DNA from: Nitrospinota bacterium
Lineage (GTDB): Bacteria; Nitrospinota; Nitrospinia; Nitrospinales; VA-1
Assembly: GCA_014382285.1 (NCBI GenBank)
Contig: JACNKA010000124.1
Location: forward strand, 1,647 to 65,646
Direction: 5' to 3'
Length of the DNA: 64,000 nucleotides
Part shown: piece after piece, positions 36,787 to 52,433 of the stretch
Layout of the letters: each line of letters begins with the position of its first letter
Position numbering within the stretch: the first letter of the stretch is position 1
Program-made: the position numbers and the translations under genes
Notes under the pieces: model-generated
The model's input: only the letters and a program-made list of their open reading frames with translations
Told to the model about the DNA's origin: nothing
The model's database searches: none

Positions 36787-38451
36787 TTATCTAATATGCG
36801 CCATCTTCCAGGTTCGATAAGAACCTGTTAGGTTTCTAACTCTAAAACCACTCTGCGCCAAAAATCGGCAAGCGTAATAAGAACGCTGACCTGTTTGGCA
36901 ATAAGCAATTATCTCCTTATCCTTCTGTAATTCAGCAAGTCGTTGACGAAGCTGTGATAGAGGGATATGAAGTGAGCCGGGGATATGCCCCTCTTCTAGC
37001 TCATCTTCATCGCGAACGTCAAGGATGGTAGTCATTTGAGAATCCAGAGTTGTGATTTCGTGCCACTGGATGTTTTGAATCTCTCCCCGCATAACATGTT
37101 GAGCCACCATTCCAGCCAAATTAACCGGATCTTTTGCCGCGCCAAAAGGTGGAGCGTAAGCTAGCTCCAAATCTTCCAAGTCGTGAACGGTCAGGCCAGA
37201 CTTTAAAGCGGTCGCCAAAACATCAATGCGTTTATCCACCCCGTCCTTTCCCAGAATTTGTGCCCCCAATAATCGGCCCTCAGTGGGATCAAACAAGATT
37301 TTCATGGCCATTCGTTGCGCCCCAGGATAATAATTTGCATGCGATGCAGGATGTAAATGCACAGTATCGTAAGGTATTTCATTTTTTTTCAGGGTTTTCT
37401 CGTTGGCTCCTGTGCAAGCCGCAACCATATCAAAACACCTTAAGATGGCGGTGCCACAGGTTCCAGAATATTTCATCGACCCACCAAATATATTTTCGGC
37501 AACAATCCGGCCCTGCCGATTTGCTGGACCAGCAAGAGGAACCAATACCCATTCTCCCGTTATAAAATCCCGCACTTCAATCGCATCCCCTATTGCCCAA
37601 ATATGCGGATCACTGGTTCCGAGACCCTCATTGACTCTAATCCCGCCCTTGTCACCAATCTCCAGACCTGCATTTTTTACTAACTCCGATTCGGGTCGAA
37701 CTCCTATCCCCAAAATAACTACATCCGCAGGAATACGCGCCCCGCTTTTTAATTCAACCACGGTGGCCTGCTCCGTATAGGGTTCGGGGTTATCAAAACA
37801 AGCAACCGCATCATCTAAATGCAGCTTGACCTCCCTGGAGACAAGCTCCTGATGAAGCCATGCGGCCATCTCAGGATCTAAAGGAGCCATGACCTGCGGC
37901 AAACCTTCAACCAGCGTGATATGCAACCCTTTCCTATGAAGTTGTTCCACCATTTCCAAACCAATGAATCCGCCGCCGACCACTACCGCCCCGGTGGCTT
38001 TCTTTTCGCTGATCCATTGGAGTATGGCCTCCATATCCGGAATTCCACGGATAGAAAAAAGACCCTCCCGATCAATTCCAGGAATGGGTGGTTTTAAAGG
38101 ACGGGCGCCTGTAGAAATAATCAGGTCGTCATAGCTTTCCCAGTAATCCTTGCGCGATTTCAGGTCGCAAATCAGGATGCGTTTCTTTGATGGATCAAGC
38201 TCAATCACCTCAGACATCACTCGAACTTCGATATTAAATCGAGCGCGTAATCCTTCCGGGGTTTGAACCAGTAAATCTTCCTTGTCCTGGATTTCACCTC
38301 CGATATAATAAGGAAGACCACAGTTAGCAAAGGAAACATATGGGCCGCGTTCAATAATAATGACCTCAGATTCCTCCGACAGTCTTCGGGCATGCGCGGC
38401 GGCTGTCGCTCCACCCGCTACTCCCCCCACAATTAAAATACGCTTCTTCAT
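36787..38451 (-). CDS. CoA-disulfide reductase-like FAD pyridine nucleotide-disulfide oxidoreductase with C-terminal rhodanese domain
   Basis: ILIVGGVAGG FAD motif, single redox Cys in SFANCGLPYYIGG, second Rossmann VVVGGGFIGLE, and a C-terminal rhodanese with active-site loop YCQTGQRS. Confidence 0.8.
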   Translation of the reverse strand: MKKRILIVGGVAGGATAAAHARRLSEESEVIIIERGPYVSFANCGLPYYIGGEIQDKEDLLVQTPEGLRARFNIEVRVMSEVIELDPSKKRILICDLKSRKDYWESYDDLIISTGARPLKPPIPGIDREGLFSIRGIPDMEAILQWISEKKATGAVVVGGGFIGLEMVEQLHRKGLHITLVEGLPQVMAPLDPEMAAWLHQELVSREVKLHLDDAVACFDNPEPYTEQATVVELKSGARIPADVVILGIGVRPESELVKNAGLEIGDKGGIRVNEGLGTSDPHIWAIGDAIEVRDFITGEWVLVPLAGPANRQGRIVAENIFGGSMKYSGTCGTAILRCFDMVAACTGANEKTLKKNEIPYDTVHLHPASHANYYPGAQRMAMKILFDPTEGRLLGAQILGKDGVDKRIDVLATALKSGLTVHDLEDLELAYAPPFGAAKDPVNLAGMVAQHVMRGEIQNIQWHEITTLDSQMTTILDVRDEDELEEGHIPGSLHIPLSQLRQRLAELQKDKEIIAYCQTGQRSYYACRFLAQSGFRVRNLTGSYRTWKMAHIR

Positions 38452-38582
38452 TAATCAGCCTCCTCAATGGATTGGCTACCTGTCAAAAAACACATACTTC
38501 TCCAACCTGGTCTATTTTTCCTTATGCGCATTCATTTCCTTTTCTATAATACAATATAGTTCTCAATAGGAAGAAAAAGACT

Positions 38583-38951
38583 ATGAATCACGACTCAAAT
38601 TTACCGGGTTTAAAGACAAGGCAGGTCACCCGTTTTGTGCTGGTCCATTTTACCGGGGAAGATTCGTCCACCTATGAACACATCAAGCAATCTCACCTTG
38701 ATGAAGGCGAGCCTGAAATCGGTTTCCATTTCATCATCACGACACAAGGCACAACTTTAATGGGAAGGCACATTTCGAAGACAGGATTTCATTATCCGGA
38801 ACTGGATGACACAAGCATTGGAATTTGTGTAATAGGAAACCGCGATGAAATGAGCGATGAGCAATCAATCGCCCTCACTTTAATACTCGAAAAATTGAAA
38901 TCCGACTATCCATCGCTGGAAACTGTAAAATACCTGTACAAAAAACACTAG
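38583..38951 (+). CDS. Short amidase_2 (AmpD/PGRP)-like domain protein, probably truncated or degenerate
   Basis: FVLVHFTG, IGFHFIIT and SIGICVIG resemble N-acetylmuramoyl-L-alanine amidase family 2. The C-terminal His/Lys/DPG region is missing at 122 aa. Confidence 0.4.
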   Translation: MNHDSNLPGLKTRQVTRFVLVHFTGEDSSTYEHIKQSHLDEGEPEIGFHFIITTQGTTLMGRHISKTGFHYPELDDTSIGICVIGNRDEMSDEQSIALTLILEKLKSDYPSLETVKYLYKKH

Positions 38952-38986
38952 CCCGCATATTGCGTGAGAGTTTCTAAATCACCCCA

Positions 38987-39007
38987 GCCCCTCTTCAGAG
39001 AAGAGGG
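38987..39007 (+). terminator. Strong hairpin downstream of the 38583..38951 gene (terminator or REP-like)
   Basis: CCCCTCTTC-AGA-GAAGAGGGG, a perfect 9-bp stem with no clear U-tract. Confidence 0.35.
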
Positions 39008-39099
39008 GTTCATTGAAGCTCCCTCTCCCACGGGAGTGGGTCGTATTTCACTTCCCCCTCTGAAAAAGTCAGATATACTGTCTGCAAGGAGGATTGCCC

Positions 39100-39606
39100 G
39101 TGATTCGACAGGTTTTAAAAGTTTTCAAAGCTTTAAACTCAAATGAAAAGCCCTGGCAGCTCAGTCTCGGCCTGGCGTTTGGCGGCGTCATTGGCTTGAT
39201 GCCATTGTGGACTCCGCACAACATCGTCCTGCTATTTCTTGCTTTCATCATTAATTTGAATTTTGCCCTCCTGCTCATCGGAGTTTTCTTTTTCTCCGGC
39301 ATCGCCTACATTCTTGACCCCCTGTTCCATCAAATCGGTTTGGCAGTTCTGACTTCAGAGGGACTGCAAAGTTTCTGGAACGGATTCTTTAGCAATTCGA
39401 TTTTCCTCTTTGACAGACTGAACAACACCTTGGTAATGGGCAGCTTGATTTTCTCCCTGATCTCTGCGGTGCCACTGTTTTTTATTTTCAATTTTCTCAT
39501 TCGAAAATACCGCGAGCATTTGATGGGGTTGCTTGAAAAAATACCTTTTCTTAAATCTCTCAAGCTGGCAAAAGCATTCAACACGGTCACGGGAGGCGGA
39601 TCATGA
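39100..39606 (+). CDS. DUF2062/TIGR03546-like small membrane protein
   Basis: AAGGAGG lies 7 nt before GTG 39100. Has 3-4 TM helices. Recalled as the conserved partner of the downstream gene family; not verified. Confidence 0.5.
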   Translation: MIRQVLKVFKALNSNEKPWQLSLGLAFGGVIGLMPLWTPHNIVLLFLAFIINLNFALLLIGVFFFSGIAYILDPLFHQIGLAVLTSEGLQSFWNGFFSNSIFLFDRLNNTLVMGSLIFSLISAVPLFFIFNFLIRKYREHLMGLLEKIPFLKSLKLAKAFNTVTGGGS

Positions 39607-41390
39607 AACTTTTCCGCTGGCAGGGAGTACTGGCTTTCGCTTTAGTCGGTGGTGTCGTGGGAGTTTTCCTGTTCCTGTTCCTCGATGGCATGATCGAAAG
39701 AGGCATTGAAGAAAAAGGCTCCGAAGTGGCAAAAACCCAGATAGACATAGGTTCCCTGACCACTTCTTTATTGTCCCAATCTGTAGCCCTGTCCAGAATT
39801 GAAATCGCCAACCCCGATAACAACATGGAAAACCTGATCCAGTTTGAAAAACTTTCACTGGACCTCAACGGGGCGCAGATTGTTTCGCACAAAATAATCA
39901 TCGACGAACTTCAGGCTCACGGCATAAAACTCAACCAGAAGCGAACCCAACCCGCCCAAGTAATCAGGAGCGCTGAATCGACTCAAGAGGCAGGACAAGA
40001 AAGTGCCGCCAGCCAAAGTAGCCTTCCCGGCTTGGGCGAACTGAGCGGGTTAAGCGTAAAATCTCCAGAAGAAATTCTCAAGTCCGAAAAACTTGAGACT
40101 CTGGAAGCCGGGAACCGGGCTAAAAAAACCATCGATGATTTAAAAGCCAAATGGGAGAAAAAGTTTGAGACCGACCTCAACCCCAACGCTCTAAAAGAAA
40201 CCCAACAGAAGCTGACTGAATTGCAGAAGAAAGTCACCGGCGGAGACTTGACAGAAATCCCCAAAGCCTTGCAAGAATTCGAAAATCTGCAAAAAGATAT
40301 TCAGGATCGAATGAACCGCATCACTTCAATGAAATCCGAATTCGAAAAAGACATGCAAATGGCAAAGCAGCAGGTCGCTGACTTGAAGAATCTGCCGCAG
40401 AAAGATTTTGAACGATTGAAAAATAAATACTCACTAAGCCCTGGAGGCGGAAAAAATATTCTTGGGTCAATGCTGGAGGGTCCGTTAAAAGAAAAACTGG
40501 ACAAGGCCTGGAAAACATACAAAATGATCAGCCCTTATTTAAATCAAGGTAAGAAATCTTCTCGGGAACAGCAGGAATACGTTCGCGGCAAGGGAATAGA
40601 TATTTCGTTCGCCAAGGCATCTCCCTACCCCGATTTCCTGCTTAAACATGGCGACCTGTCTTTGATTCTTTTCGACACGGAAGTAAAAGGCGAAGTGAAA
40701 GATTTATCAGACAACCAGACCGTCTACGGGAAACCCGCCAAGCTGAACTTTCAATCGGGCAAAAACCAAAACTTTAACTCCTTTGCTCTCGCCGTCACGA
40801 TGGATAAAACTGGCCCGCAATCCCTGGACTCCATCGCTCTGGACATGCAGGGACTCAACCTGAAAAATGTGGGTCAAGCAGAGCTTAAAGACGGCTCGGC
40901 AAAAATCAATGGCTTATTAACTATCATTGATGAAAATAATTTAAATGGCATTTTCAAAGCCGAACTGGATGGCGTGGCACTTTCAATTCCCCAACAGGAA
41001 GGCAACGAACTGGCTAACACCATCGCGCAATCGTTATCAAGCATTGACCGAATCAATATTTCTGTCGAAATCAGCGGAACAATAGAAAATTACCAGTTGG
41101 ATATAAAATCGAACCTTACCGAGATCGTCTCCAAAGCAGTCAAGAAAGCCCTGGCTGGAAAAATGAAAGGATTTGAAAGTTCCCTGATGTCCGCCATTCA
41201 AGCAAAAACTGGCGATGTCCTCTCCGGCACCAGTGGTTCGCTTTCCGGCTTGCTCGGTCAAAACAAAATTTTAAATGATAGCGGGTCTGCTTACGGCGGG
41301 TTGCTGGGTCAAGCTAAAGGCGGAGCAACAGAGCTGGCAAAACCCAAAGGCGGCCTCTCGCTACCCGGCGGATTAAAACTTCCGTTTTGA
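39603..41390 (+). CDS. TIGR03545-like / AsmA-related membrane-anchored protein
   Basis: 595 aa with an N-terminal TM helix, a central coiled-coil K/E-rich region and a Gly-rich C-terminus. Overlaps the upstream gene by 4 nt (ATGA). Confidence 0.5.
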   Translation: MKLFRWQGVLAFALVGGVVGVFLFLFLDGMIERGIEEKGSEVAKTQIDIGSLTTSLLSQSVALSRIEIANPDNNMENLIQFEKLSLDLNGAQIVSHKIIIDELQAHGIKLNQKRTQPAQVIRSAESTQEAGQESAASQSSLPGLGELSGLSVKSPEEILKSEKLETLEAGNRAKKTIDDLKAKWEKKFETDLNPNALKETQQKLTELQKKVTGGDLTEIPKALQEFENLQKDIQDRMNRITSMKSEFEKDMQMAKQQVADLKNLPQKDFERLKNKYSLSPGGGKNILGSMLEGPLKEKLDKAWKTYKMISPYLNQGKKSSREQQEYVRGKGIDISFAKASPYPDFLLKHGDLSLILFDTEVKGEVKDLSDNQTVYGKPAKLNFQSGKNQNFNSFALAVTMDKTGPQSLDSIALDMQGLNLKNVGQAELKDGSAKINGLLTIIDENNLNGIFKAELDGVALSIPQQEGNELANTIAQSLSSIDRINISVEISGTIENYQLDIKSNLTEIVSKAVKKALAGKMKGFESSLMSAIQAKTGDVLSGTSGSLSGLLGQNKILNDSGSAYGGLLGQAKGGATELAKPKGGLSLPGGLKLPF

Positions 41391-41447
41391 TTTAAAATAA
41401 TCAAGCCCTCGCCCCGTCATGCTACTCCATTAAATAAACCGACAGGT

Positions 41448-42026
41448 TTAGGCCAGCACTCGTCTTCTATAAACCACCATCAGGGAATATATCAGGCATA
41501 CTGTCGCTATGGTTGCGGGGAATAAGGCAGTCGTTAGCGAATAGTTTTCCAAGGCTAAAATAACAAAAAAGTTACGTGCTGCCATAATCACAAAAAATAT
41601 CAACTGCTCTTCAAGAGGGTACATATATGCCTTCCTAAAGGTTGGAGCAAACCCCAACACATCGACCGTCGTCAAGATCACCACGGCCCATAACGGATCC
41701 GAGGTCAGGTACCAAAGGGGTAAGGATATCATGGCAAATACAAAAAATATCCAGTCTACTCGGGTGATGGTGCTATCTGACTTCTTGATATAAGCCAAAA
41801 AAGCAACATAGATGGAAATAATACCGGAAAACCCTATTACCCAGGCACCCGCCCCGCCTTTATCTGCAAGCTGAGCCAGAAAAACAATACATGTAGAAGA
41901 CCCCCATATTACCCAGGAAAACACATGCGGCCTGATTTTACCCTGAAGAATAGAACGTATATAGGGGTAATAGGCAATTATTGTTAGCCCGATAGCAATA
42001 GCACTGAATAGCTGTTCTTGATTCAC
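41448..42026 (-). CDS. Integral membrane protein (about 6 TM helices)
   Basis: 192 aa, hydrophobic throughout. No catalytic motif recognised. Confidence 0.55.
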   Translation of the reverse strand: MNQEQLFSAIAIGLTIIAYYPYIRSILQGKIRPHVFSWVIWGSSTCIVFLAQLADKGGAGAWVIGFSGIISIYVAFLAYIKKSDSTITRVDWIFFVFAMISLPLWYLTSDPLWAVVILTTVDVLGFAPTFRKAYMYPLEEQLIFFVIMAARNFFVILALENYSLTTALFPATIATVCLIYSLMVVYRRRVLA

Positions 42027-42115
42027 AAGAGGCTCTCAATATTTTATATGTTTCCTGAAAAACCTGAATGGTACGGGTTTAAAAAAAGGCAGGAGTTAAG
42101 CGTCCCGGCTCGCCA

Positions 42116-42643
42116 TTAAGAAGATGCTCGTTCAATAGCTTCTCCTATCAGTTGGGCTGCATGCTCGGAACCTTCCCAGTCATCCAACTCGACCCATTTC
42201 CCTGGCTCTAAATCTTTATAGTGAGCAAAAAAATGGGCAATTTGCTCCAGAAGGATTTTAGGCAAATCGGTATATTCTTTGACATCTGAATAATAAGGGT
42301 TCAAGGCATCAACCGGGACAGCTAGAATTTTTTCATCCGCCCCTTTTTCATCCCTCATTTCCAAAACTCCGACAGGTCGGCAACGGACGATGCAGCCGGA
42401 TAAAAACTCCACAGGGGAGGCCACCAGAATATCAAGGGGGTCACCGTCTTCGGAAAGGGTATGCGGCACAAATCCGTAATTACAGGGGTAACGCATTGAA
42501 GTGTGCATGACGCGGTCTACATACAAAGCACCGGATTTTTTATCCATTTCGTATTTCACCGGTTCACGACCAAATGGAACCTCAATGATAACGTTGATAT
42601 CCCACGGGGGTGCTTCGCCTATCGGTATTGCATCAATATTCAT
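42116..42643 (-). CDS. ppa: Inorganic pyrophosphatase (family I)
   Basis: VIIEVPFGREPVKYEMDK...ALYVDR...YPCNYGFVPHTLSEDGDPLDILV matches the family I PPase signature. Confidence 0.9.
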   Translation of the reverse strand: MNIDAIPIGEAPPWDINVIIEVPFGREPVKYEMDKKSGALYVDRVMHTSMRYPCNYGFVPHTLSEDGDPLDILVASPVEFLSGCIVRCRPVGVLEMRDEKGADEKILAVPVDALNPYYSDVKEYTDLPKILLEQIAHFFAHYKDLEPGKWVELDDWEGSEHAAQLIGEAIERASS

Positions 42644-42810
42644 AACAGGTCACTTAATTTATAGAACGAAAATTCATTCAAGGTTTATAACTCATTCAGC
42701 ACTGGGGACAATAGATCTGTCAGGAAGTGTCAAACTGATCAGGCTTTTTAAAGCCCACTGGAAATGTTTCAACTAATGGGAAGGTAGCCAGTCACCATTC
42801 CTGTAAGGAA

Positions 42811-42885
42811 TGCCGAGGGCCGGAATCGAACCGGCACGAGGTCGTTGGTAAAATATAACGCCCTCGAGGGATTTTAAGTCCCTTT
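42811..42885 (-). pseudogene. tRNA-Leu 3' fragment (anticodon arm through 3' end); att-like direct repeat of the intact tRNA at 49751..49834
   Basis: TGCCGAGGGCCGGAATCGAACCGGCACGAGG...CCCTCGAGGGATTTTAAGTCCCTT matches the intact gene apart from 2 substitutions and a ~16-nt insertion in the variable-arm loop. The 5' acceptor and D arm are absent and replaced by AT-rich sequence. Confidence 0.75.
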
Positions 42886-43066
42886 ATTGATAATGTAACT
42901 TATTGATTTTATTGGTAATTAAAATTATTTTCCTGTGTATGTGTAAGAAACTGTGTAAGTTTTGACCGATTTTAAACCACATTCAAGCCCCTAATACAGC
43001 TTCTAATGCATTTTACTTTTTCTCCTATTAGATGTCTTCTTATTTTTTGCAGATAGGCGTCTCTGG

Positions 43067-46000
43067 CTAGGAAGGCAGTCGAATCTCTCGGAACGACTCG
43101 CCAAGCTGAAGCGCCGCACTTCGCCGATCACCCATATCGACTAGCATGTCTAGGATTCGTAAAAACTTCTGCGCCAGCGTAAGAGTCATAGGTGCGTCAC
43201 GATGTGCAAAGTGTTGTACCAGCTCCGCAATGCGCGCTGGAATGAAGGTCCCGTGCCAACCTTTTAGGTTGTCGGGACCGTCCCCTATAATTGCGAGGAC
43301 TTGGTCTGCAAAGACTTCGGCTGGGTAGTTGACCCGAGCTCGTTCAGAGAGCGTCAAAAATGGGTCCATCACTGAAGCCGCCCATCCGCCAGCGCGAATG
43401 AAGCGATCAACTAAGGGCAGGATGCGGGTGATTTCAGACCAGTCACCATTCACATAGCGGGCGGCCCCCTCCGCTCGCTCTACTGAGACAAACATCAACG
43501 TGCGAACAAGATTTGGTTGATCGAAGCCTGAAAATTCTCCACTCCTGTAGGTGTCCCGCTTTAAGACAGAGTCTTGCAGAAGCCGTTCAAGACAGAGATC
43601 AAGTATTGTAATAGAGTCCACAGGAACGATTGGCGCATCGAACACATAAGCGCAAACAAAGGTATCCGCGAATGGTGAGAGAAGGGCCCAGCAATTGTCC
43701 CCTTCAAGGTCCAAAATCGGGTCAAGAAAACGGGCCTGAAAATCGGCGAGCGGGATTAGGCCAGCTATGTGACCCAGCCGCGATCCAAGCGTATGCGTCC
43801 ACTCAAAAATTCGGGTTGCTGACCGATCACGACGCCCCGGCTTCACCCACGGCGGAGCATTTTTCTGGTTAGTCCAGTCAAGAACATTGGCAAGGAATTC
43901 GAGAAGGTTATTTTGTGCCTCGCTGTTCAGAACTTCATCGAAAGGGAGGTACTTGAGGATTTCTGCTGCCTGCTTTGAGTGCCAGAAGACATCCGGTTCA
44001 CCCCACCTCTCGGCCAAGTCAGTTGCATCACCCATATCATAATCTTCGTAGACTTGATGCCCACGTCGGCCCGTTCCGGGTTCGACTTTCACCCATGCTG
44101 GAGGAGGTAACGGAAGAGGAGCCCAGCCGCTTCCACTCTCATAGAACTCAAGCGCCGTTTTGACTTTATCTTGTGCTTCACTTGAAGTGAGAAGTGGTTC
44201 ACCATATTGACGGGGCTGGTCTTGCGGGCGTGAAGGAACGCTACAGAGAGAAAATGCCAAGATCAGAGCGGACCAAGTAAGCTTGGAGTCATTAGACCAA
44301 AGTTTGCAAGCTTCTTCAATTGCTGCTGACGAAACGACTTCAAGTGGATGCGCAATCATCTTGAGGAGGTCTCGAGCTGTGCCGTGCGCTGCAGTCCTCT
44401 CGCGAATATCCGCTGCAAGGCCACGCGCCACGTAAATCCCATGGTGCCAGGGAATAACGGATTCTGGGGACGACATTAGATCGGGTTTCTCTGGAAAACG
44501 AATTGCACGCCTTAGAATATCACGAGCCCACTCAAGATCTTGTTGTGTACGCCCTTCTCGAAAGTTAAGCACTATGGCCGCTGTCGCTGCGACTGCACCC
44601 CGATGTATTCCAAACCGCTCTTCTTCATTCTGGTTGCTCGAGTTTTCGAATAAGTTAACGGTGTCTGCTTCCTTGGCTAACTTAATGGCATCTTCAACGG
44701 TATAGGTGTCATTCAGTGCCTTTTCTTCGAAGGATTTGGATGCCCACGTCCAAAGGCCCGTTTGCCTGAGGTATTTAGTAGCCTTTTCAGCCTTAGCAAC
44801 ATTTTCAGGTTCAGCAGCAGAAGGGCTAACATGGACAATGGCAATCTGGTCTGAATCCTCTTCGGTGCGGTAGCTCTGATAGTTTTTCGGGTCCGCCAGC
44901 TCGGCATATTTGAGGGCCTGCGCTGTGAGATGCTCCCGCTCCTCCTGAATGTTGCGGTGTTCTTCGTATTGGTAGGGCAAATTGTTCTTGAAATTTAGAA
45001 TCGCTTCTCGCGCTCGGCCACGGAAAGGCTCCGTTGCAAAGACGAAGCTGGGTACCATCCAACTAAGCTGTTTCTTACGGACCGGCCTGGCATTTGCAGC
45101 CTGGACCGCTTCAAAGTGGGGTTTGTCGGTTCTACCCTTGAAACCCATCAGGTTGGCCGTTGATGAAAAGTAGTCTTGCTCCCATCGGTTATCATCTGCA
45201 GCTAACAGCCTTTGCGATGTAAAGAGTGGAAATGTTGTTTCAGACACCGTCTCGGTGTGGAGTGTAAGCATTGAAGCCATTCCTAGGATGGCTATGCATT
45301 CATTTCCCTCTACAATTTGTTGTATCAGCTCGTCAACAGACCGGTCGCGATCAAGCTCGGCGAAGCACCACTCCTCAAGCGCCATAAACCCACAGCCGAT
45401 GGCTTCGGGCGCAAACATTGACCGAAACCAAAGATACTCTCGATTCGTTCCCCAGAAAATTTGAGTGCCCCAGGGAAATGTTAGTTCAAGCGGTATAGGG
45501 ATGCCACTACGGTCGTATGAGTGGCGATGTAACTGTTGCCACGCGGTCATCGCATGATTACAGAGTTCTCGAAGGAGACGCAATGCATGGTCAGGCGATG
45601 ATTGGAATAGTGAATGAAAGGGGTCGCGCAGCGGTGAAGGGGGATTGAAGCTTTGGTGGTCGTCGTTGATCGACAGTCTTTCCCAATCGTGGTAACTGAA
45701 ATCGCCTATAGTACGTAAAGGAGAACAAGCATCAATCACCATATTCTCGTGACGTGTGCGTTCCGCCTCCGGTTTTTCCAAGATTGCTTTGCGTCGCTCA
45801 GCATGATCATGAAGTTCCTGCTTTTCTCGGGCGGCTTGCTCGTCTGGAAGTTCCTCCCGTAGAAATGCGAGTGCAAACTCAAAGACTGGCTGGGGCAACG
45901 ATTGAGCCAAGATAGGTGTGTAGTTGATAATGTTATGAAATTCATCATCTCTTATGCGCTCTAATTTGGTGACCCGTTGCAAATACTCAGCTGCAACTGT

Positions 46001-47326
46001 CGGATAAGTTTTGGATGATTTTAAGAGAAGTTGGCTCAACGATTTTCGGAAAGAGTCCATGTCGGAAATCTTTCTCCAAAACTCAGAGTTCTCGTCAGAA
46101 TTATAGAAGGGATAAATCTTGTCGATGGCGGCCAACCAAATAGCGCATTGTTGCAGAAGCGAACTAGACGTTGCGTTGCGAATGTTGACTAATGCATTTT
46201 GCCAAACCTCGAAGATGGCGACGACCTCTGGATAAAGCCGCTGGGGAATGTCTGAAATGCGCGGTAGAATAAAGTCGATGAGGCGACGCCACGCTGCGTA
46301 ATCGGAAGGCCACCCGAGGAGATCCGCGATTCGTTGGCGTTGTTCTCGGGGAAGATCACCAGTAAGAATAAGCTCATTTGGGGTTGTCTTCTCAGCCTGA
46401 ATCCATACGAGCGTCTTCCTGAAAAGTAGGAAATCATTGGCAAAGACGACCGTTGCGAATTGGTCTTCATCATTTTCAAACCTTGCATTTCCCAAGGGAC
46501 CAAGCAACCACGCTCTTAACCATTGTGACCGTAGTTCCGAATCCTCCGTTTGGGCAAGGTACGCTGACCAGTTTGTTCCCTGCGAGTACTCCCATTGGGA
46601 GTTGAGCTCGACGACGCGAGCTACTGCCGGAGGTTCACCGCAGGCCTTGATAACGTCAATCCATTGTTGTCCGCAATCTGCAAGGATATGGAAGAAGGCC
46701 CATTCGAAAAAAATATCATGGGCAAAGCGGATGGAAACCCCTTCGCGAGCATTTTGGAGTATGCCGTCTGATCTTAGATCATCAATGCGTGTGAGTGAGG
46801 TTAGCTGACTAAGGGGAACCGGCTGGCTAAGCTGGCGGGCACGAATATTTGCTAATTCGAGCAATGCGCGCTGGCGTTCAAGCGCATTTTGACCCGTTTC
46901 ATTGTAACCTCCCCGACTCCACCAATTCCCAATTAAATCGATTTCAGATTGAGGGGCGAATGTCGAAGCGCTGGGGTCGGCCATGTAATTTTGGTTCAGC
47001 ACTTTTGCAAAAAAGGGCCGTCGGACAATCTCTCGCACTTGGGCTGATCCAAATAAAAGTGGTCTCAGGTGTGGTTTGGCGTTAGCGAGTGCCTCAGCTT
47101 CATCGTCGCTCAACTGAGTAATGTTAATCGTCTCTACCTTCAGGGGGTCAAGAAATTCGCCCAGCCAATTGCGAAGCACCTCAATACCCGTATCGCGAAG
47201 GGAGACTACTATGCGCCAGTTGTTTAACAATGGCGATTTCACAATGGTGTGAATTATGTCTATGATGATGGGCTGATGTTCTTTTTCGATGCGATCAATC
47301 GCATCGATGTAGAAAATTGGGAGCAC
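43067..47326 (-). CDS. Giant protein: C-terminal part of a STAND/NACHT-like NTPase (Walker B onward) plus >1,200-aa helical domain of unknown function
   Basis: 1419 aa with a GTG start. The N-terminus PIFYIDAIDRIEKE is Walker B-like, and RIVVSLRDTG resembles the NACHT TSR motif. The remainder is W/L/E/R-rich with no recognisable motif. Overlaps the upstream ORF by 32 nt. Confidence 0.7.
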   Translation of the reverse strand: MLPIFYIDAIDRIEKEHQPIIIDIIHTIVKSPLLNNWRIVVSLRDTGIEVLRNWLGEFLDPLKVETINITQLSDDEAEALANAKPHLRPLLFGSAQVREIVRRPFFAKVLNQNYMADPSASTFAPQSEIDLIGNWWSRGGYNETGQNALERQRALLELANIRARQLSQPVPLSQLTSLTRIDDLRSDGILQNAREGVSIRFAHDIFFEWAFFHILADCGQQWIDVIKACGEPPAVARVVELNSQWEYSQGTNWSAYLAQTEDSELRSQWLRAWLLGPLGNARFENDEDQFATVVFANDFLLFRKTLVWIQAEKTTPNELILTGDLPREQRQRIADLLGWPSDYAAWRRLIDFILPRISDIPQRLYPEVVAIFEVWQNALVNIRNATSSSLLQQCAIWLAAIDKIYPFYNSDENSEFWRKISDMDSFRKSLSQLLLKSSKTYPTVAAEYLQRVTKLERIRDDEFHNIINYTPILAQSLPQPVFEFALAFLREELPDEQAAREKQELHDHAERRKAILEKPEAERTRHENMVIDACSPLRTIGDFSYHDWERLSINDDHQSFNPPSPLRDPFHSLFQSSPDHALRLLRELCNHAMTAWQQLHRHSYDRSGIPIPLELTFPWGTQIFWGTNREYLWFRSMFAPEAIGCGFMALEEWCFAELDRDRSVDELIQQIVEGNECIAILGMASMLTLHTETVSETTFPLFTSQRLLAADDNRWEQDYFSSTANLMGFKGRTDKPHFEAVQAANARPVRKKQLSWMVPSFVFATEPFRGRAREAILNFKNNLPYQYEEHRNIQEEREHLTAQALKYAELADPKNYQSYRTEEDSDQIAIVHVSPSAAEPENVAKAEKATKYLRQTGLWTWASKSFEEKALNDTYTVEDAIKLAKEADTVNLFENSSNQNEEERFGIHRGAVAATAAIVLNFREGRTQQDLEWARDILRRAIRFPEKPDLMSSPESVIPWHHGIYVARGLAADIRERTAAHGTARDLLKMIAHPLEVVSSAAIEEACKLWSNDSKLTWSALILAFSLCSVPSRPQDQPRQYGEPLLTSSEAQDKVKTALEFYESGSGWAPLPLPPPAWVKVEPGTGRRGHQVYEDYDMGDATDLAERWGEPDVFWHSKQAAEILKYLPFDEVLNSEAQNNLLEFLANVLDWTNQKNAPPWVKPGRRDRSATRIFEWTHTLGSRLGHIAGLIPLADFQARFLDPILDLEGDNCWALLSPFADTFVCAYVFDAPIVPVDSITILDLCLERLLQDSVLKRDTYRSGEFSGFDQPNLVRTLMFVSVERAEGAARYVNGDWSEITRILPLVDRFIRAGGWAASVMDPFLTLSERARVNYPAEVFADQVLAIIGDGPDNLKGWHGTFIPARIAELVQHFAHRDAPMTLTLAQKFLRILDMLVDMGDRRSAALQLGESFREIRLPS

Positions 47327-48455
47327 CAGTAGCCTCGACCTCTACGAGAAGCTGTTCCAGTGGCGCACCCGACAAGCCCTGCGAGGTCGCATAGCTAATC
47401 CAGTTGGTCCCTTCGAGTTGCTCGGCTTTAAGAAAGAGGATCGGCCCCTGTTCTAGCGAACGTTGCACTGCCCGCCTCACTAGGACTGATTTACCACTTC
47501 CCGGTAAACCCCTTACCTGGACGACATGAGCCGTAGTGAGTTTTGTGTCTAGACTCTCTAATAACTGGGTTCGGTCGAGCTTTGTTCCACCAATATCGTC
47601 AGGAATGAGGTTCGTGTAACTCTTAGCTAACTCTGTCAATTTGCCTAAGTCATGGCTTAGAGAAGTCGCACCACGGAGACGCGCGACTGGTGAAATGAAA
47701 TGCACAAGTCGTGTGCGATTAAACTGACCTGATTTACCTGCTGATGAACGTGCTAGCTGGACTACTCGCGACCAGACAAGCGAAGCCTTGGCTGCGTCGT
47801 CTGGTGCGAGACAATCCCGAATACGATTAATGGCTTCAGAAGGATCAGTAGAACCTTCGCGAAGGAAGTCGAACTGTATTAGTACAAAATGAGCAAGAAA
47901 GTGATGTACTTCTTCAGTCGTACATGACATCCCCTTTTCTTCTTCCAACAGAGTCACAACATCGTTCTTAACGGTTTTAATGTCTGGGCTGGCGTTTCCA
48001 CCCTCAACAAATCGAGCATGGAAATGGTCAGGCGTCAGACTTTCACGAGCCAAATCGCAAAGTGTTTTTAGTGCTCGTTCTTTGGAAGGGGTAATGGTTC
48101 CAACTGCCGTTCCGTAGCGGTCGACATTAAAGCGAAAGTCAGGCTTATTAAAGGTTGCCCAACTGTCTCGGATGATTTCGCGAAAGTCTTCATTCGAATT
48201 TGCACTGCTGATCGTGAGAGAACGTTTTACTTGTAGGCTAAGTCGAGCAGGGTTCTTTGAATCATCTTCAAAGTCGACAATCACATCATCGAGGGGTTCA
48301 CCGAAATCGCGTTGTTGGACCGAAACTTGAATAACAGTTCGATCATCGATCCCAGGTGCATAAGCTTCGGCTAATAACGCAGCGAGATAAAATGCAGCCG
48401 CGTCACCTTCAAAGGTAAATCCTTCGCCGCCACCGATTTCAGGTGATTGTGACAT
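47295..48455 (-). CDS. PD-(D/E)xK-like (Cap4/DUF4297-like) nuclease N-domain plus the Walker A half of a P-loop NTPase
   Basis: 386 aa. GGGEGFTFEGDAAAFYLAALL...LDDVIVDFED...LSLQVKRS at the N-terminus, and GLPGSGKS Walker A about 60 aa before the stop. Confidence 0.65.
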   Translation of the reverse strand: MSQSPEIGGGEGFTFEGDAAAFYLAALLAEAYAPGIDDRTVIQVSVQQRDFGEPLDDVIVDFEDDSKNPARLSLQVKRSLTISSANSNEDFREIIRDSWATFNKPDFRFNVDRYGTAVGTITPSKERALKTLCDLARESLTPDHFHARFVEGGNASPDIKTVKNDVVTLLEEEKGMSCTTEEVHHFLAHFVLIQFDFLREGSTDPSEAINRIRDCLAPDDAAKASLVWSRVVQLARSSAGKSGQFNRTRLVHFISPVARLRGATSLSHDLGKLTELAKSYTNLIPDDIGGTKLDRTQLLESLDTKLTTAHVVQVRGLPGSGKSVLVRRAVQRSLEQGPILFLKAEQLEGTNWISYATSQGLSGAPLEQLLVEVEATGAPNFLHRCD

Positions 48456-48807
48456 CGCTATTTTGAAAAAGGGTTTTACCCCACCACGGATGGTCGAGTT
48501 ATTCGAGAATTTCTATTCGATAGCACTACAGTCATTAAGCCGTCCTCACTGGAGTCGGGTTTTCACTTACAGAACAGATTTTTACAAAGTATACCTCAAA
48601 GATTTTTTTTCAGGGCTTTTCCTTTTTTCGCCCCTCAGTCATCTAGGTTTTTCAATTCAGGTTTTACAGCATCGGAAGTTTTAACCGGCAAGGGCGTGCC
48701 TCCTTCACTCCGTTATGCCCTGTGGGTTGCAGTTTTCTGCCGCTACTGCCTCTCCTGAAAATATGAAAGGCCCGGATGGTTCGGGCTTAAAAAATAAGGA
48801 GGAAAAA

Positions 48808-48930
48808 ATGGAACATTTGATCGTCATGCACGAACTGGAAGGTTTGAGCGAACCGGAACATCTTGGCTCTAAAAAGAACAAATGTGTAAATGTTCAAACT
48901 TTACAATTGTGCGCAAAACCGCTAAGCTGA
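48808..48930 (+). CDS. Candidate 40-aa small ORF in the island
   Basis: AAGGAGG lies 6 nt upstream of ATG 48808. Encodes MEHLIVMHELEGLSEPEHLGSKKNKCVNVQTLQLCAKPLS. No similarity recognised. Confidence 0.25.
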   Translation: MEHLIVMHELEGLSEPEHLGSKKNKCVNVQTLQLCAKPLS

Positions 48931-48967
48931 AATAAGGAGAAATTCTCTCAATACAGGAGTAAAAATA

Positions 48968-49231
48968 ATGCGACGTTTATCCATAGAGGTCACCCCGGAG
49001 CAACACCAACGGCTAAAAGCCGTCGCCGCCCTCCAAGGCAAGACCATAAAAGATTACGTTCTTGAACGTGCCTTGCCACAGCTCCCGGATTTGAGTTCCA
49101 TGTCCGAAGAAGAGGCGGTCAATAAACTGGAAGATTTTTTGAAACCCCGCATCGAGGCCGCAAGGAAGGGTGAATTTTCGCCCCGGTCGGTCGAACAGAT
49201 TTTTGAGGATGTACGGCAGGAACAAAAATAA
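48968..49231 (+). CDS. Ribbon-helix-helix antitoxin (ParD/CopG-like)
   Basis: 87 aa. The N-terminal RLSIEVTPEQHQRLKAVAALQGKTIKDYVLERAL is an RHH fold pattern. Its stop overlaps the toxin start (TAATG). Confidence 0.7.
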   Translation: MRRLSIEVTPEQHQRLKAVAALQGKTIKDYVLERALPQLPDLSSMSEEEAVNKLEDFLKPRIEAARKGEFSPRSVEQIFEDVRQEQK

Positions 49232-49539
49232 TGCGGCCTTATGAATTAACCAAGGATGCGGAAGCCGACTTGGAAGAAATTGCCCGGTACACAATTGAGG
49301 AATGGGGCGAAGCCCAAGCCGAAAGTTATCTGGGAAAAATCAGCCAGTGTTTTAAGAATATCACTAAAAACAAAGTAGCCTCCCGAACCTTTTCAGAAAA
49401 ATTCCCCGATGCGCAAGTCATCCGCTGCGAGCATCACTATATTTTCTATTTGTATCTCAAGGGGGAAAAGCCCATCATCTTCGCCGTTCTCCACGAACGG
49501 ATGGACATGTTGACGCGTTTAAAAAATCGTCTGGGATAA
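49231..49539 (+). CDS. RelE/ParE family toxin
   Basis: 102 aa. YELTKDAEADLEEIARYTIEEWGEAQAESYL...HHYIFY...IIFAVLHERMD is typical of ParE-type toxins. Confidence 0.8.
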   Translation: MRPYELTKDAEADLEEIARYTIEEWGEAQAESYLGKISQCFKNITKNKVASRTFSEKFPDAQVIRCEHHYIFYLYLKGEKPIIFAVLHERMDMLTRLKNRLG

Positions 49540-49657
49540 AAATCGGATTTATATTTCCTGATCCGTAAGGGTCGGCGAGCCGCCGTTGTTAACATCCCCA
49601 ACATTTGGAGTTTTGTAGCACTCAAAAAGCCTGAAAAGTCCCCTCCACGGGTGGTGG

Positions 49658-49673
49658 TGCCGAGGGCCGGAAT
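49658..49673. repeat. 16-nt copy of the tRNA-Leu 3' end (att remnant)
   Basis: TGCCGAGGGCCGGAAT is identical to 42811-42826. Both carry G where the intact tRNA gene has A. Confidence 0.5.
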
Positions 49674-49679
49674 GAGTTG

Positions 49680-49730
49680 TAGCTTGTTCAGCCGAGACCA
49701 GATTTTCTTGCCCAAAAAAGATATTGCTAT
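49680..49730. repeat. Fragment of the dispersed repeat family between the att remnant and the tRNA
   Basis: TAGCTTGTTCAGCCGAGACC...AAAAGATATTGCTAT matches the left part of copy A at 13351-13397. Confidence 0.55.
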
Positions 49731-49750
49731 TTTCCTCTCCCGTGAGGGAG

Positions 49751-49834
49751 TGCCGAGGACCGGAATCGAACCGGTACGAGGTTACCCTCGAGGGATTTTA
49801 AGTCCCTTGCGTCTACCAATTCCGCCACCCCGGC
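49751..49834 (-). tRNA. tRNA-Leu (anticodon UAA)
   Basis: Minus strand reads GCCGGGGTGGCGGAATTGGTAGACGCAAGGGACTTAAAATCCCTCGAGGGTAACCTCGTACCGGTTCGATTCCGGTCCTCGGCA. It folds by hand into a cloverleaf: 7-bp acceptor (one G-U), anticodon loop CTTAAAA, long variable arm CGAGG-GTAA-CCTCG, T-loop TTCGATT. CCA is not encoded. Confidence 0.9.
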
Positions 49835-50033
49835 TCAGGTGTTCATGCTTTTAAAGAAATTTCCGGCTGGAATTGGGGTTCACCGGAGTTTGTAGTGAGG
49901 GATGTTAACAGTTTCCATTTAAAATTCCAACTGCCAACAGTATCAATTTTTTTAATTTCTGCCTCAAACCCACATTGTATCCATCCCCAATTTCATCATA
50001 GAATGAAAAGTTCACAACCACTTTAATGAAACA

Positions 50034-50894
50034 TTGAGGAACTTTGCTTTGAGGGATCCTAAACGAATATTAAAGAAACTGCTGGGACCGGAAGCAACCG
50101 TCGAACCTTTTGCGGAGACTGGCGAACCTTTAGAGCAAACGGTCGCAACGTTTCGCGATGTGGTCAAATGCCGAAAAATCCGCGACTACGTGCAGGAGCA
50201 ATTTGGCTTCAACCTGGCCTTTTCACCGGAGGTTTTTCATGGCCTACTCAACATCCCGCAAATCAATTATATTGAAACGACAAAAAGAGACCTGGAAGTG
50301 GAAACAGTCTCTCTAAAAGAAATCCGTTCTCCCGACTCCCCCGTCACCATCGCTAATTTGAATTCGGTTCTGCGGGAACTCTATGCCAACCTTTTCCTGA
50401 TCAAGGAACGCATCAGTAAGGACTTCCCCAATGCCGTTTTAATCAACGAAATGCGCACCGAGCATATTGACCGGGTCCAGCACCTCGTTAAAACCATTGC
50501 GGTATTGCACGGTAACCTGACCGGGTATCTGCTCACCAGCTGGAAAGCAGGACGCATCGAAAAAGAGTTCCGGTCTCTTTTTCCCAACTCAATAAAGGCG
50601 CACCCTCTTCGCAGCACCTTCCCGCTCATTGAGCATGAACTCGAACTGTATCGCGAGGTTCTTAAAACTCAGAATAAATGGAAAGCAATAGAACTCGACC
50701 TGTTCGCCATAATTCAGCACCCTCAAGGTATTAACCCGCTGCTCGAAAATATCCAGGAAATGGGCAACCGGCTATGGCAGATCATTTATCAGAGTTCCGA
50801 CATACGGCAATGTGTAGACCTTGCGGGAATTGACTTTGGGGATATCCAACCACTGTTCGATAACGATAAAGTAGCCTTGAATCCCTCAGGCTAA
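50034..50894 (+). CDS. Hypothetical protein (TTG start in track)
   Basis: 286-aa ORF with ordinary composition and no recognised motif. Confidence 0.5.
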   Translation: MRNFALRDPKRILKKLLGPEATVEPFAETGEPLEQTVATFRDVVKCRKIRDYVQEQFGFNLAFSPEVFHGLLNIPQINYIETTKRDLEVETVSLKEIRSPDSPVTIANLNSVLRELYANLFLIKERISKDFPNAVLINEMRTEHIDRVQHLVKTIAVLHGNLTGYLLTSWKAGRIEKEFRSLFPNSIKAHPLRSTFPLIEHELELYREVLKTQNKWKAIELDLFAIIQHPQGINPLLENIQEMGNRLWQIIYQSSDIRQCVDLAGIDFGDIQPLFDNDKVALNPSG

Positions 50895-50974
50895 CCACTC
50901 GGCGTGGGGCCGATATGGCGGAGCAAACTCATCAAGCCGAGATAAATCTTTGTTAGCCAGATAAAGCATGGCTA
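50895..50974. repeat. Dispersed repeat family copy between convergent gene ends
   Basis: CCACTCGGCGTGG is the reverse complement of the CCACGCCGAGTGG module. It is followed by AAGCCGAGATAAATCTTTGTTAGCCAG, which matches 15799-15825. Confidence 0.55.
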
Positions 50975-50995
50975 CTAGCTTCCCTCGCTAGAGGA

Positions 50996-51544
50996 CTAGC
51001 CTTTGACTTGGAAGCCTTCTATTTTGTCCAATAGCAGGTGTTTAACGGTAGACATTTTTTGCGCTTCCAGGAGGGCATTTTTTCCCTCTTCCCTAAGTCG
51101 GTTGAGGCGCAAATCGAGACGTACAAGGTTGGTAAAAAGAGGCATGAATTTCGCTAAAACCACGGCTCCCTCATCGGTGATTTCATTATCCGTGAGGACG
51201 AGGTTCTGCAAGCTCAAAAGATTGTCTGAAACTGCGATGTATTTAACCCCTTCGTTGCCCAACCGATTATAAAACATATTCAGCGAAGTCAGGTTAACCA
51301 GCACTTCAGACTGGGCAATATATTTTGCCCCTTTAGCACCACATAAATTCGTGCCAAAAGCCAGATGTGTGAGGGGTCGCAAAAACTCCATGCGAGAGAT
51401 GTCCTTGGCACCATATTCTTTCAAATAAGTAGCGGTGAGATCAAGGGTTTTGCCATCTTTGCTCAAATTCATTCGAACAATCGATTCGGTCGCAGCCATG
51501 ACCCTTTCCTGCCCCATGGCGGTCTTATTACCACTGTAATCCAT
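50996..51544 (-). CDS. Leucine-rich repeat protein (ribonuclease-inhibitor-like LRRs)
   Basis: About 28-aa repeats: LTSLNMFYNRLGNEGVKYIA, LQNLVLTDNEITDEGAVVLA, LVRLDLRLNRLREEGKNALL. Confidence 0.7.
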   Translation of the reverse strand: MDYSGNKTAMGQERVMAATESIVRMNLSKDGKTLDLTATYLKEYGAKDISRMEFLRPLTHLAFGTNLCGAKGAKYIAQSEVLVNLTSLNMFYNRLGNEGVKYIAVSDNLLSLQNLVLTDNEITDEGAVVLAKFMPLFTNLVRLDLRLNRLREEGKNALLEAQKMSTVKHLLLDKIEGFQVKG

Positions 51545-51899
51545 AATTCCCTTTCTCCAGCAAATTAAAACTCAATACGGCTTCCCCGGTTTGGGTCGAA
51601 CTTTTGACGATGCCTCGATTATACACCGGTTTGAGGTTCACAGGCAACTACTCGGCGTAGGGTCAGTTGGCAACCCACTCCAGAAATAGGCTCCACGCCT
51701 TTGGCGCTCAAATCAGCGACACCGGCCCATTGCCCATTCAACCAAGATCACCCTTTTTTCGCGGAAGTGATATTTGACCTCATGTCTCGTGCCCCGCAGG
51801 GGTAAAAAGATATTGCAGTTGCCCCTACGGCTAGTAGTGGATTTTTTGCTGAAAATAATTTAAAATGCGGACTAAACCTCAATTTAGGGAGTAGATGGT

Positions 51900-52433
51900 A
51901 TGGCTGGATTATACAGAACCGAGACTGAAATGAGTCTGGGTAATAACGTAATCGTAACTCAAATGACCCAGGCCATAAACTGGGCACGAAAATATTCTTT
52001 TTTTATCTATCCCTTCATCACCGCATGTTGCGGAATGGAGTTCATGTCTGTAGCCGGCCCCCGGTACGATCTCGATCGAATGGGTGCAGCGTTTCCCCGG
52101 TTTTCACCGAGGCAGGCCGACCTGCTCATGGTCGTTGGAACCATCAGCCACAAACAGGCCCCTATTCTCACCAAGGTCTACAACCAGATGACTGAACCCA
52201 AATGGGTGGTTGCTTATGGAGTGTGCACGGTTTCCGGCGGGTTCTACGACAACTATTCCACTGTGATGGGAATTGACACCCTCATCCCGGTCGATGTCTA
52301 CATTCCAGGATGCCCACCAAGGCCCGAAATGGTGATCGATGCGCTGATGAAATTGCAGGACAAAGTGCAAGGGGAAACCTTGGAAGACCACGTCAAAGGC
52401 CCGGCTCTCGTCACCCCCGCCAGCAAACTCTAG
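51900..52433 (+). CDS. nuoB: NADH-quinone oxidoreductase subunit B homolog (NuoB / NiFe-hydrogenase small-subunit-like), orphan
   Basis: INWARKYSFFIYPFITACCGMEFM...RQADLLMVVGT...GVCTVSGG...IPGCPPRPE. All four cluster N2 Cys ligands are present. Start could be 51900 or ATG 51930. Confidence 0.8.
   Translation: MAGLYRTETEMSLGNNVIVTQMTQAINWARKYSFFIYPFITACCGMEFMSVAGPRYDLDRMGAAFPRFSPRQADLLMVVGTISHKQAPILTKVYNQMTEPKWVVAYGVCTVSGGFYDNYSTVMGIDTLIPVDVYIPGCPPRPEMVIDALMKLQDKVQGETLEDHVKGPALVTPASKL

Follow-up and report, generated by a model that had tools for sequence, protein, structure and literature searches.

A probable Avs4-like antiviral STAND gene with a predicted Cap4-type nuclease domain, recently frameshifted on a tRNA-linked islet of a Nitrospinota bacterium

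A 64,000-nucleotide stretch of contig JACNKA010000124.1 from a Nitrospinota bacterium, referred to below as the window, contains two overlapping open reading frames (ORFs) on the minus strand, ORF1 and ORF2, located between the pyrophosphatase gene ppa and a tRNA-Leu gene (Table 1). The two ORFs overlap by 32 nt, with the register of ORF2 offset by +1. Both had been noted in a preliminary description of this DNA, and their coordinates, their strand and all the motifs quoted there were confirmed, namely GGGEGFTFEGDAAAFYLAALL, DDVIVDFED, LSLQVKRS and, near the end of ORF1, GLPGSGKS, and at the start of ORF2 PIFYIDAIDRIE and RIVVSLRDTG. Our analysis indicates, with good confidence, that one gene at this locus encodes an antiviral STAND (Avs) receptor belonging to a large clade with a distant relationship to Avs4, that this receptor is composed of a Cap4-type nuclease, a STAND nucleoside triphosphatase (NTPase) and an Avs4-type sensor of ~1,150 residues, and that the window copy of the gene was most likely inactivated recently.

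As judged by alignment, ORF1 and ORF2 are halves of one gene and not a chance ORF pair, because more than 120 single-ORF homologs span both. In a search of 5.8 billion protein clusters, the conceptual fusion of the two ORFs aligned end to end with these proteins of 1775-1823 aa, at 100% coverage and 73-86% identity, in agreement with the earlier view that they read as one modular protein. Single-ORF homologs were found in Desulfurispirillum, Nitrosomonas, Salinisphaera, Acidobacteriota, Pseudomonas, Burkholderia and Halomonas.

Table 1. Features of the locus and of the islet that carries it (window coordinates)
Feature	Position	Strand	Description
Whole disrupted gene	43067..48455	-	1,795-aa protein after removal of one base; predicted Cap4-like nuclease, STAND NTPase, Avs4-type sensor
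ORF1	47295..48455	-	386 aa, ATG start; nuclease domain and start of the NTPase through Walker A
ORF2	43067..47326	-	1419 aa, GTG start; remaining NTPase from Walker B, and sensor
Cap4/DUF4297-like PD-(D/E)xK nuclease domain (predicted)	47586..48455	-	residues ~1-290; AlphaFold2 model, Foldseek, conservation
Inferred catalytic residues	E16 48408..48410; D56/D57 48285..48290; Q75 48231..48233; K77 48225..48227	-	alignment
STAND NTPase module (from sequence)	46535..47579	-	corrected residues ~293-640, approximate boundaries; interrupted by the frameshift; family profile versus EcAvs4
Walker A loop GLPGSGKS	47487..47510	-	residues 316-323
Frameshift site	47317..47321	-	CCCAA versus CCAA or CCCA in homologs, one inserted nucleotide; located after Walker A and before Walker B
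Walker B strand IFYIDAIDR	47291..47317	-	corrected residues 380-388
RIVVSLRDTG	47186..47215	-	sensor-1 arginine R420 in a T/S-x-R motif
Avs4-type alpha-helical sensor (predicted)	43070..46534	-	corrected residues ~641-1795; AlphaFold2 and Foldseek
Sensor stretch matched directly by the Avs4 sequence models	44495..45679	-	PADLOC and NCBIfam on ORF2 residues 550-944
ppa (pyrophosphatase)	42116..42643		islet neighbour on the left side
Left direct repeat	42807..42884	.	partial 78-nt tRNA-Leu 3' copy adjoining ppa; repeat search; no tRNA call
ParD antitoxin	48968..49231	+	87 aa; PF09386 on the identical gene in homologous locus L034
ParE toxin	49231..49539	+	102 aa; PF05016 ParE_toxin
Right direct repeat	49747..49808	.	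tRNA-Leu 3' part, anticodon arm to 3' end; repeat search
tRNA-Leu(UAA)	49750..49834	-	ARAGORN; islet starts at its 3' end

To characterize the N-terminal domain, residues 1-292 were modelled with AlphaFold2 (predicted local distance difference test, pLDDT, 91.8; predicted template modelling score, pTM, 0.86). The model displays an alpha-beta-beta-beta-alpha-beta restriction-endonuclease-like core, i.e. the PD-(D/E)xK core, formed by helix 15-28 (bearing E16), strand 40-46, strand 58-63 (immediately following D56/D57), strand 69-80 (bearing Q75 and K77), helix 89-102 and strand 113-121. An alignment of 43 sequences shows no variation at G12, D56, D57, Q75 and K77 and hardly any at S4, G10, E16, Q47 and P54, E16 being conserved in at least 90% of the sequences. 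Comparison of the model with the PDB by Foldseek returned Cap4, LmuA, HamA, Avs3 or HerA-DUF4297 for all of the top 24 matches, with a probability of 1.0: MoCap4 (6VM5, E=2.4e-7), LmuA (9HR5, E=3.5e-7), HamA (8ZUE, E=7.5e-7), AbCap4 (6WAM, 6VM6 and 6WAN, E=1.7e-6 to 1.6e-5), SeAvs3 (8DGC, E=3e-4) and HerA-DUF4297 (9C1M, E=3e-4). In DUF4297, the experimentally established catalytic triad D41/E59/K61 has the same spacing as D57-x17-Q75-x-K77 (bioRxiv 10.1101/2024.10.24.620088). The middle acidic residue is a Gln in the window protein, and E16 on helix 1 may supply the second carboxylate. The predicted fold, these Foldseek matches and the invariant D56/D57, Q75 and K77 support a Cap4-type PD-(D/E)xK nuclease domain with putative activity, the assignment that the preliminary description had drawn from the motifs.

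The same domain is also recognised by PADLOC, in which ORF1 residues 1-275 matched positions 1-250 of the 474-position profile DUF626_VIII (PDLC02918) with E=2e-27. This profile represents the type VIII retron accessory protein, which Mestre et al. (2020) regard as a putative serine esterase. A serine-esterase N-terminus was rejected, as no GxSxG motif occurs among the conserved residues and the predicted fold is Cap4-like. No retron reverse transcriptase is encoded on the islet (42885..49746), so that the adjacent reverse transcriptase by which retron type VIII is recognised is absent there. As a separate observation, the ~250 DUF626_VIII profile positions held in common with the Cap4-like domain raise the possibility that the type VIII retron effector itself bears an N-terminal nuclease domain. 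The PADLOC candidate PDC-M54A, a profile of ~1,620-1,660 positions, was matched by intact homologs from the N-terminus through the NTPase, with E values down to 1e-12.

The following module, compared by sequence, is a STAND NTPase homologous to that of Avs4. A family profile built from 94 full-length members was searched against the PDB, and its first stretch of alignment with EcAvs4, which extends over the NTPase module and beyond, joins profile positions 274-780 to EcAvs4 residues 187-672 (domain E=3.8e-21). In the 94 homologs, G319, G321 and K322 of Walker A, D384 of Walker B and the sensor-1 arginine R420 are invariant, and all of them are present in the window copy; D387 and R388 of Walker B are at least 90% conserved. 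The profile aligns the R420 segment (VVSLRD) to WQVVFTTRNN, i.e. to the TTR of EcAvs4. In Pfam, the window ORFs have no match to NACHT (PF05729, gathering threshold 26.7 bits), and the P-loop region of ORF1 has sub-threshold AAA_16, nSTAND and NB-ARC matches only. The NACHT scores of four relatives were 30.7 (P0198, above the threshold), 26.2 (P0237), 23.8 (P0215) and 18.6 (P0269). The alignment with the EcAvs4 NTPase, the invariant arginine in its T/S-x-R motif and the NACHT score of P0198 uphold the earlier reading of a STAND NTPase with a TSR-like motif.

Sequence similarity of the C-terminal region to Avs4 is detected directly over ORF2 residues 550-944, which match positions ~760-1160 of the Avs4 profiles (PADLOC, E=1.2e-19; NCBIfam, E=2.1e-26). 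In PADLOC, ORF2 scores 67 bits against Avs4; five intact relatives, chosen to span the family, all match the same model at 58-98 bits. With the family profile, EcAvs4 (8DGF_A) was retrieved from the PDB with E=2.8e-39, the next PDB match being Avs2 at 9e-4. Three stretches are colinear with EcAvs4: beyond the one given above, positions 915-1318 align to residues 762-1178 and, weakly, 1674-1763 to 1484-1575. The AlphaFold2 model of residues 600-1795 (pLDDT 88.6, pTM 0.80) is almost wholly helical over the C-terminal 1,196 aa, as had been proposed from the sequence for more than 1,200 aa. In Foldseek, this model matched chains A and B of 8DGF with E=5e-18 and TMq 0.59 over ~1,250 columns, while its other matches were generic solenoids with E around 1e-5 and TM ~0.2. 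Because the match to 8DGF stands far above that to generic solenoids, the sensor is, as modelled, of the Avs4 type. Pfam finds no domain in it, and the preliminary description, which had called it an unknown sensor that fits no family, is corrected on this point by the PADLOC, NCBIfam, family-profile and structural matches. The structure prediction and Foldseek comparison proposed in that description thus agreed with it for the nuclease, which matches the Cap4 type, but not for the novelty of the sensor, which matches EcAvs4.

The break between the two ORFs was located by aligning the proteins and by comparing the DNA of the window with that of seven homologous loci. Across the junction, the intact homologs have the sequence EATG(T/A)P(I/V)(F/L)(Y/F)IDAIDR, and the window DNA GGTGCTCCCAATTTTCTACATCGAT differs from GGTACTCCAATTTTC or GGCACTCCCATTTTG of the homologs by one surplus base inside CCCAA. 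The last eight codons of ORF1 (NFLHRCD and the stop) are an out-of-frame read-through, the shift occurring within CCCAA at the Pro/Asn codons. The frameshift interrupts the nucleotide-binding fold, with Walker A before it and Walker B after it. The split, taken at first for part of the architecture, is therefore not a design but a 1-nt frameshift within the nucleotide-binding domain, which intact homologs lack. Because it falls inside this domain and is absent from intact homologs, the window copy is most likely dead: the nuclease and P-loop would be uncoupled, and a signalling-competent receptor is not to be expected from it.

Apart from the frameshift, the gene is intact: it contains no other stop or frameshift and keeps all 98 alignment columns whose conservation in the 94 homologs is 90% or more, which suggests that the frameshift is recent. 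This otherwise flawless state, together with a change of a single base in the short run CCCAA, would also be expected if the frameshift had arisen as an artefact of sequencing or assembly, in which case the gene of the organism would be intact and functional and encode 1,795 aa. However, the identical 386+1419 split is present on 13 contigs of a Nitrospinota organism, from several samples and assemblers (ENA ERZ24794644, Logan SRR29139952 and SRR29139948), all sharing the ParE/ParD and pyrophosphatase neighbours, and the 5.8 billion clusters contain no intact allele of more than 86% identity, which makes an assembly error unlikely. Moreover, a run of two to three bases is not an error-prone homopolymer. 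The public metagenome-assembled genome (MAG) of this Nitrospinota points in the same direction. Its proteins MBC8287540-51 are identical to the window housekeeping proteins at 36787..52433, and only four protein accessions stand between Ppa (MBC8287546) and NuoB (MBC8287551), leaving no room for ORF1 and ORF2; this numbering suggests that the gene is already handled as a pseudogene in that record. We consider an artefact improbable and, from these comparisons, the window copy is probably a real and recent pseudogene, in which the frameshift separates the nuclease and P-loop from the rest.

The lack of further decay is equally compatible with continued selection, as would apply if the split were tolerated or bypassed, either by reassembly of the two polypeptides or by a +1 slip of tRNA-Pro at CCC-A giving a low level of full-length receptor. 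CCC-N sites are prone to +1 slippage, and a +1 shift here (GCU CCC AAU read as GCU CCC, then AUU) would restore the ancestral APIFYIDAIDR. Against this, no stimulatory element is visible and the A site holds no rare or stop codon; an upstream Shine-Dalgarno-like signal was neither looked for nor seen. None of the more than 120 homologs uses such a slippage site. The break lies between the P-loop and Walker B strands of the nucleotide-binding fold, where fragment complementation is unlikely, and the fragmented family copies found in other lineages (771-aa and 1196+506-aa in Burkholderia/Paraburkholderia) suggest ordinary decay. Tolerance or bypass of the split is thus very improbable, and partial activity of the Nitrospinota allele through slippage at CCC-A, considered alone, is rated similarly low. 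The pseudogene remains our preferred interpretation of the window copy.

Several observations weigh against an inactivated Avs4-like receptor with a Cap4-type nuclease. At the effector, the acidic residue of (D/E)xK is a Gln (Q75), and the Pfam DUF4297/Cap4 model, with which the preliminary description had proposed to check the domain, gives no match on residues 1-290 at E<=1; Pfam likewise gives no match for the N-terminal domain of five intact homologs at E<=0.01. The NCBIfam Avs4 model (NF041815, an equivalog with a cutoff of 1500 bits) scores ORF2 at 91.5 bits and ORF1 at 21 bits, and the PADLOC Avs4 scores of 58-98 bits come with partial profile coverage. Phmmer searches of each single ORF against the PDB returned nothing useful, only the family profile reaching Avs4, and the structure-based identity to EcAvs4 is ~14%, so that ligand specificity may have diverged from portal. 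Both the nuclease and the sensor structures are predictions; the structure models cover effector and sensor, and the NTPase is assigned from sequence. Finally, the loss of function of the window copy is deduced from the position of the frameshift.

The extent of the family was assessed by an exhaustive HMMER scan of 1.84 billion representatives clustered at 50% identity, with residues 1-1190 as the query, which returned 2,548 matches at E<=1e-3, 1,621 at E<=1e-10 and 612 at E<=1e-30. The architecture of ~1,720-1,820 aa persists down to ~27% identity, and matches usually begin at query residue 1-4. Identities of 73-86%, and up to 95% for some pairs, were observed across Pseudomonadota, Desulfobacterota, Campylobacterota, Chrysiogenota, Acidobacteriota, Chlorobiota and an actinomycete MAG. 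This cross-phylum identity of 73-86% indicates recent inter-phylum transfer of the 5.4-kb single gene. The N-terminus itself is exchanged in some members: in P0253 (1727 aa), a trypsin-like peptidase (Trypsin_2, 29.2 bits) replaces the nuclease in front of the same NTPase and sensor, which on sequence grounds is effector swapping of the kind seen in Avs families, and P0230 (1733 aa) and P0220 (1943 aa), of the same NTPase/sensor clade, have non-Cap4 N-termini that match nothing in Pfam.

The genomic context of the homologs was examined at 35 loci. All-against-all BLAST of flanking ORFs revealed no conserved partner gene, the best shared neighbours (integrase, AlpA or guaA) recurring in at most 3-4 of the 35 loci; a multi-gene system was rejected for lack of a conserved neighbour. 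A general linkage to tRNA genes was also rejected, since a tRNA lies within 10 kb in only two of the 35 homolog loci, which makes this linkage specific to the window. The homolog of D. indicum adjoins IS91, genes for an integrase and a KAP NTPase, and a PIN toxin pair, that of Halomonas cupida lies beside a type II CBASS on an integrative and conjugative element (ICE), and a JGI-contig homolog is located after a RES-Xre pair. Among 150 ORFs within ~4 kb at 30 loci, the commonest Pfam families were phage integrase (7) and rve transposase (4), and relaxases also occurred; PADLOC identified MADS components, AbiEii, a reverse transcriptase, PD-T4-6 and Cas1 in the same set. Homologs are carried by 24 plasmids, of which 10 are conjugative. 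The association with defence and mobile genes is read from the observed neighbours, uncorrected for background. Neither phage genomes (searched by tblastn) nor viral contigs (scanned) yielded a relative, which was counted as neutral for a host defence gene, and a megablast comparison of the locus with genomes and plasmids of E. coli gave no match.

These integrases, plasmids, ICE and CBASS, toxin-antitoxin and MADS neighbours, with no consistent core-genome context at the 35 loci, bear out the mobile and defence setting expected from the preliminary description. They also bear on a non-defence role, e.g. that of a signalling or regulatory STAND ATPase with a helical repeat domain. The public annotations of homologs, which read 'ATP-binding protein', 'NACHT domain-containing protein' or 'hypothetical protein', would be compatible with such a role, and many STAND clades are not defence-related (PMC13581612). 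Against this role stand the predicted Cap4-type nuclease fold of the N-terminus with its invariant catalytic residues, the exchange of this N-terminus for a protease in P0253, and a homology that is specifically to Avs4 and not to regulators. The patchy distribution at high identity across phyla and the location of homologs on plasmids, an ICE and integrase-linked islands, beside CBASS, toxin-antitoxin and MADS genes, likewise speak against it. We regard a non-defence role as extremely improbable. The effector/NTPase/sensor layout, the Avs4 homology and these contexts favor the antiviral STAND receptor already suspected in the preliminary description.

Two further observations concern the genes flanking homologs. 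In Halomonas cupida (L038/L039, 3820..8970), a CBASS-like operon directly upstream encodes a SAVED effector, a 424-aa protein with no Pfam match, a ThiF E1-like protein and a JAB protein, and the same element also bears TraG, ArdC and an SNF2 helicase. A gene for an RNase_T/DEDDh exonuclease of ~190-200 aa lies directly upstream of the homolog in L040 (9236..9838), in L038 (8962..9531) and probably in L011 (9239..9835); it follows an Xre-RES toxin pair in L040 and L011 and is not conserved in other loci.

In solved relatives, binding of a phage protein relieves autoinhibition, ATP-bound NTPases tetramerise, and Mrr or Cap4 nucleases pair and degrade dsDNA (PMC13581612; bioRxiv 10.64898/2026.08.25.746987). 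Because the NTPase, the sensor scaffold and the effector type are shared, intact members of the family most likely work in the same way; their ligand, oligomerisation, nuclease activity and defence phenotype are deduced by homology to EcAvs4, SeAvs3 and SeAvs7. First, the sensor would wrap around a conserved phage structural protein, most likely portal by analogy with Avs4. Secondly, this binding would release autoinhibition, and the ATP-bound NTPase modules would oligomerise, possibly into tetramers as in the solved relatives. Thirdly, the nuclease domains brought together would form active dimers, cutting DNA indiscriminately so that the infection is aborted. From this analogy, we give portal somewhat less than an even chance of being the ligand of intact members. 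That the clade is a separate Avs family, which would use the Avs4 sensor scaffold for another ligand (non-portal, or a portal class unseen by EcAvs4) while spreading between phyla, is possible, though rather unlikely.

In the window, repeats of the tRNA-Leu 3' part delimit an islet of ~6.9 kb (42885..49746), which contains the Avs-like gene, a 71-aa ORF and ParD/ParE only, and no integrase. The tRNA-linked island and the toxin-antitoxin pair mentioned in the preliminary description are therefore present, at the tRNA-Leu(UAA) gene and at 48968..49539, respectively. The two repeats align in two blocks, 49747-49782 with 42807-42842 (92% identity) and 49785-49808 with 42861-42884 (100%), and the left one carries 16 extra bases in the variable-arm loop. 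A third tRNA-Leu fragment of 26 nt (49648..49673) is closer to the distal copy than to the real tRNA. The tRNA-Leu 3' copies suggest that integration took place at least twice and that the islet, which retains no integrase, has decayed. ParD and ParE, with overlapping stop and start codons, are divergent from the Avs-like gene, and the 71-aa ORF between them and that gene (48715..48930) has no known domain. The minus strand at 50996..51544, just past the tRNA towards the chromosome, encodes a 182-aa protein whose leucine-rich repeats resemble those of ribonuclease inhibitor, which is unusual for a bacterium.

For annotation, the window gene is best recorded as one frameshifted pseudogene on a decayed tRNA-linked islet, not as two proteins. 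The large and widely transferred clade of ~1,800-aa proteins to which it belongs (612 clusters at 50% identity, E<=1e-30) is unnamed in Pfam, NCBIfam and PADLOC 2.0. Its members occur in many environmental bacteria, among them nitrifiers, sulfur oxidisers, Burkholderia, Pseudomonas, Halomonas and Aeromonas, and on rhizobial plasmids, and are, as this analysis indicates, Avs4-like pattern-recognition receptors with a Cap4 nuclease, for which portal-triggered DNA degradation is predicted. The curated Avs4 models could be broadened.

Among known systems, Avs4 (EcAvs4, 8DGF) is the closest: its NTPase and whole helical sensor are colinear with those of the window family, and in each case one gene makes up the system and a nuclease forms the N-terminal effector. 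The window-family protein is, however, ~200 aa longer and ~14% identical, it falls far below the curated thresholds, and its effector is Cap4-like, whereas that of EcAvs4 is an Mrr-like nuclease (bioRxiv 10.64898/2026.08.25.746987). Because of the thresholds and the effector, we file the gene under an Avs4-like clade, not under Avs4 proper. Gao et al. in 2022 are said to have found that effector identity varies within Avs families, which would make effector type weakly defining.

SeAvs3 (8DGC) and SeAvs7 follow the same grammar of Cap4 nuclease, STAND NTPase and large helical sensor, and their Cap4 domains tetramerise upon ligand binding and cleave dsDNA (PMC13581612). The effector/NTPase combination, held to match no nameable family in the preliminary description, is thus already known from these two proteins. 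Avs3 nevertheless has no detectable sequence relation to the window family in NTPase or sensor, since only Avs4 and, weakly, Avs2 matched the family profile. The ligands also differ, EcAvs4 sensing portal, SeAvs3 terminase and SeAvs7 the major capsid protein (PMC13581612; bioRxiv 10.64898/2026.08.25.746987).

Cap4 (CBASS), LmuA (Lamassu), HerA-DUF4297 and HamA (Hachiman) have the nuclease fold and the D-x17-(E/Q)-x-K pattern in common with the window family, but their activation depends on cyclic oligonucleotides (SAVED), on SMC-like partners or on HerA/helicase partners, and none is fused to a STAND NTPase. The likeness to DUF626_VIII of type VIII retrons is confined to the N-terminal domain, and the islet has no reverse transcriptase. 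In a recent census (Lee et al. 2026), 589 STAND clades were distinguished, and the Avs families among them number at least 90. The corrected window protein and all full-length homologs combine effector, STAND NTPase and large sensor in one polypeptide, as Avs proteins generally do. The gene is a recognisable kind of defence gene and not a new kind, its Cap4-STAND-sensor grammar being already known.

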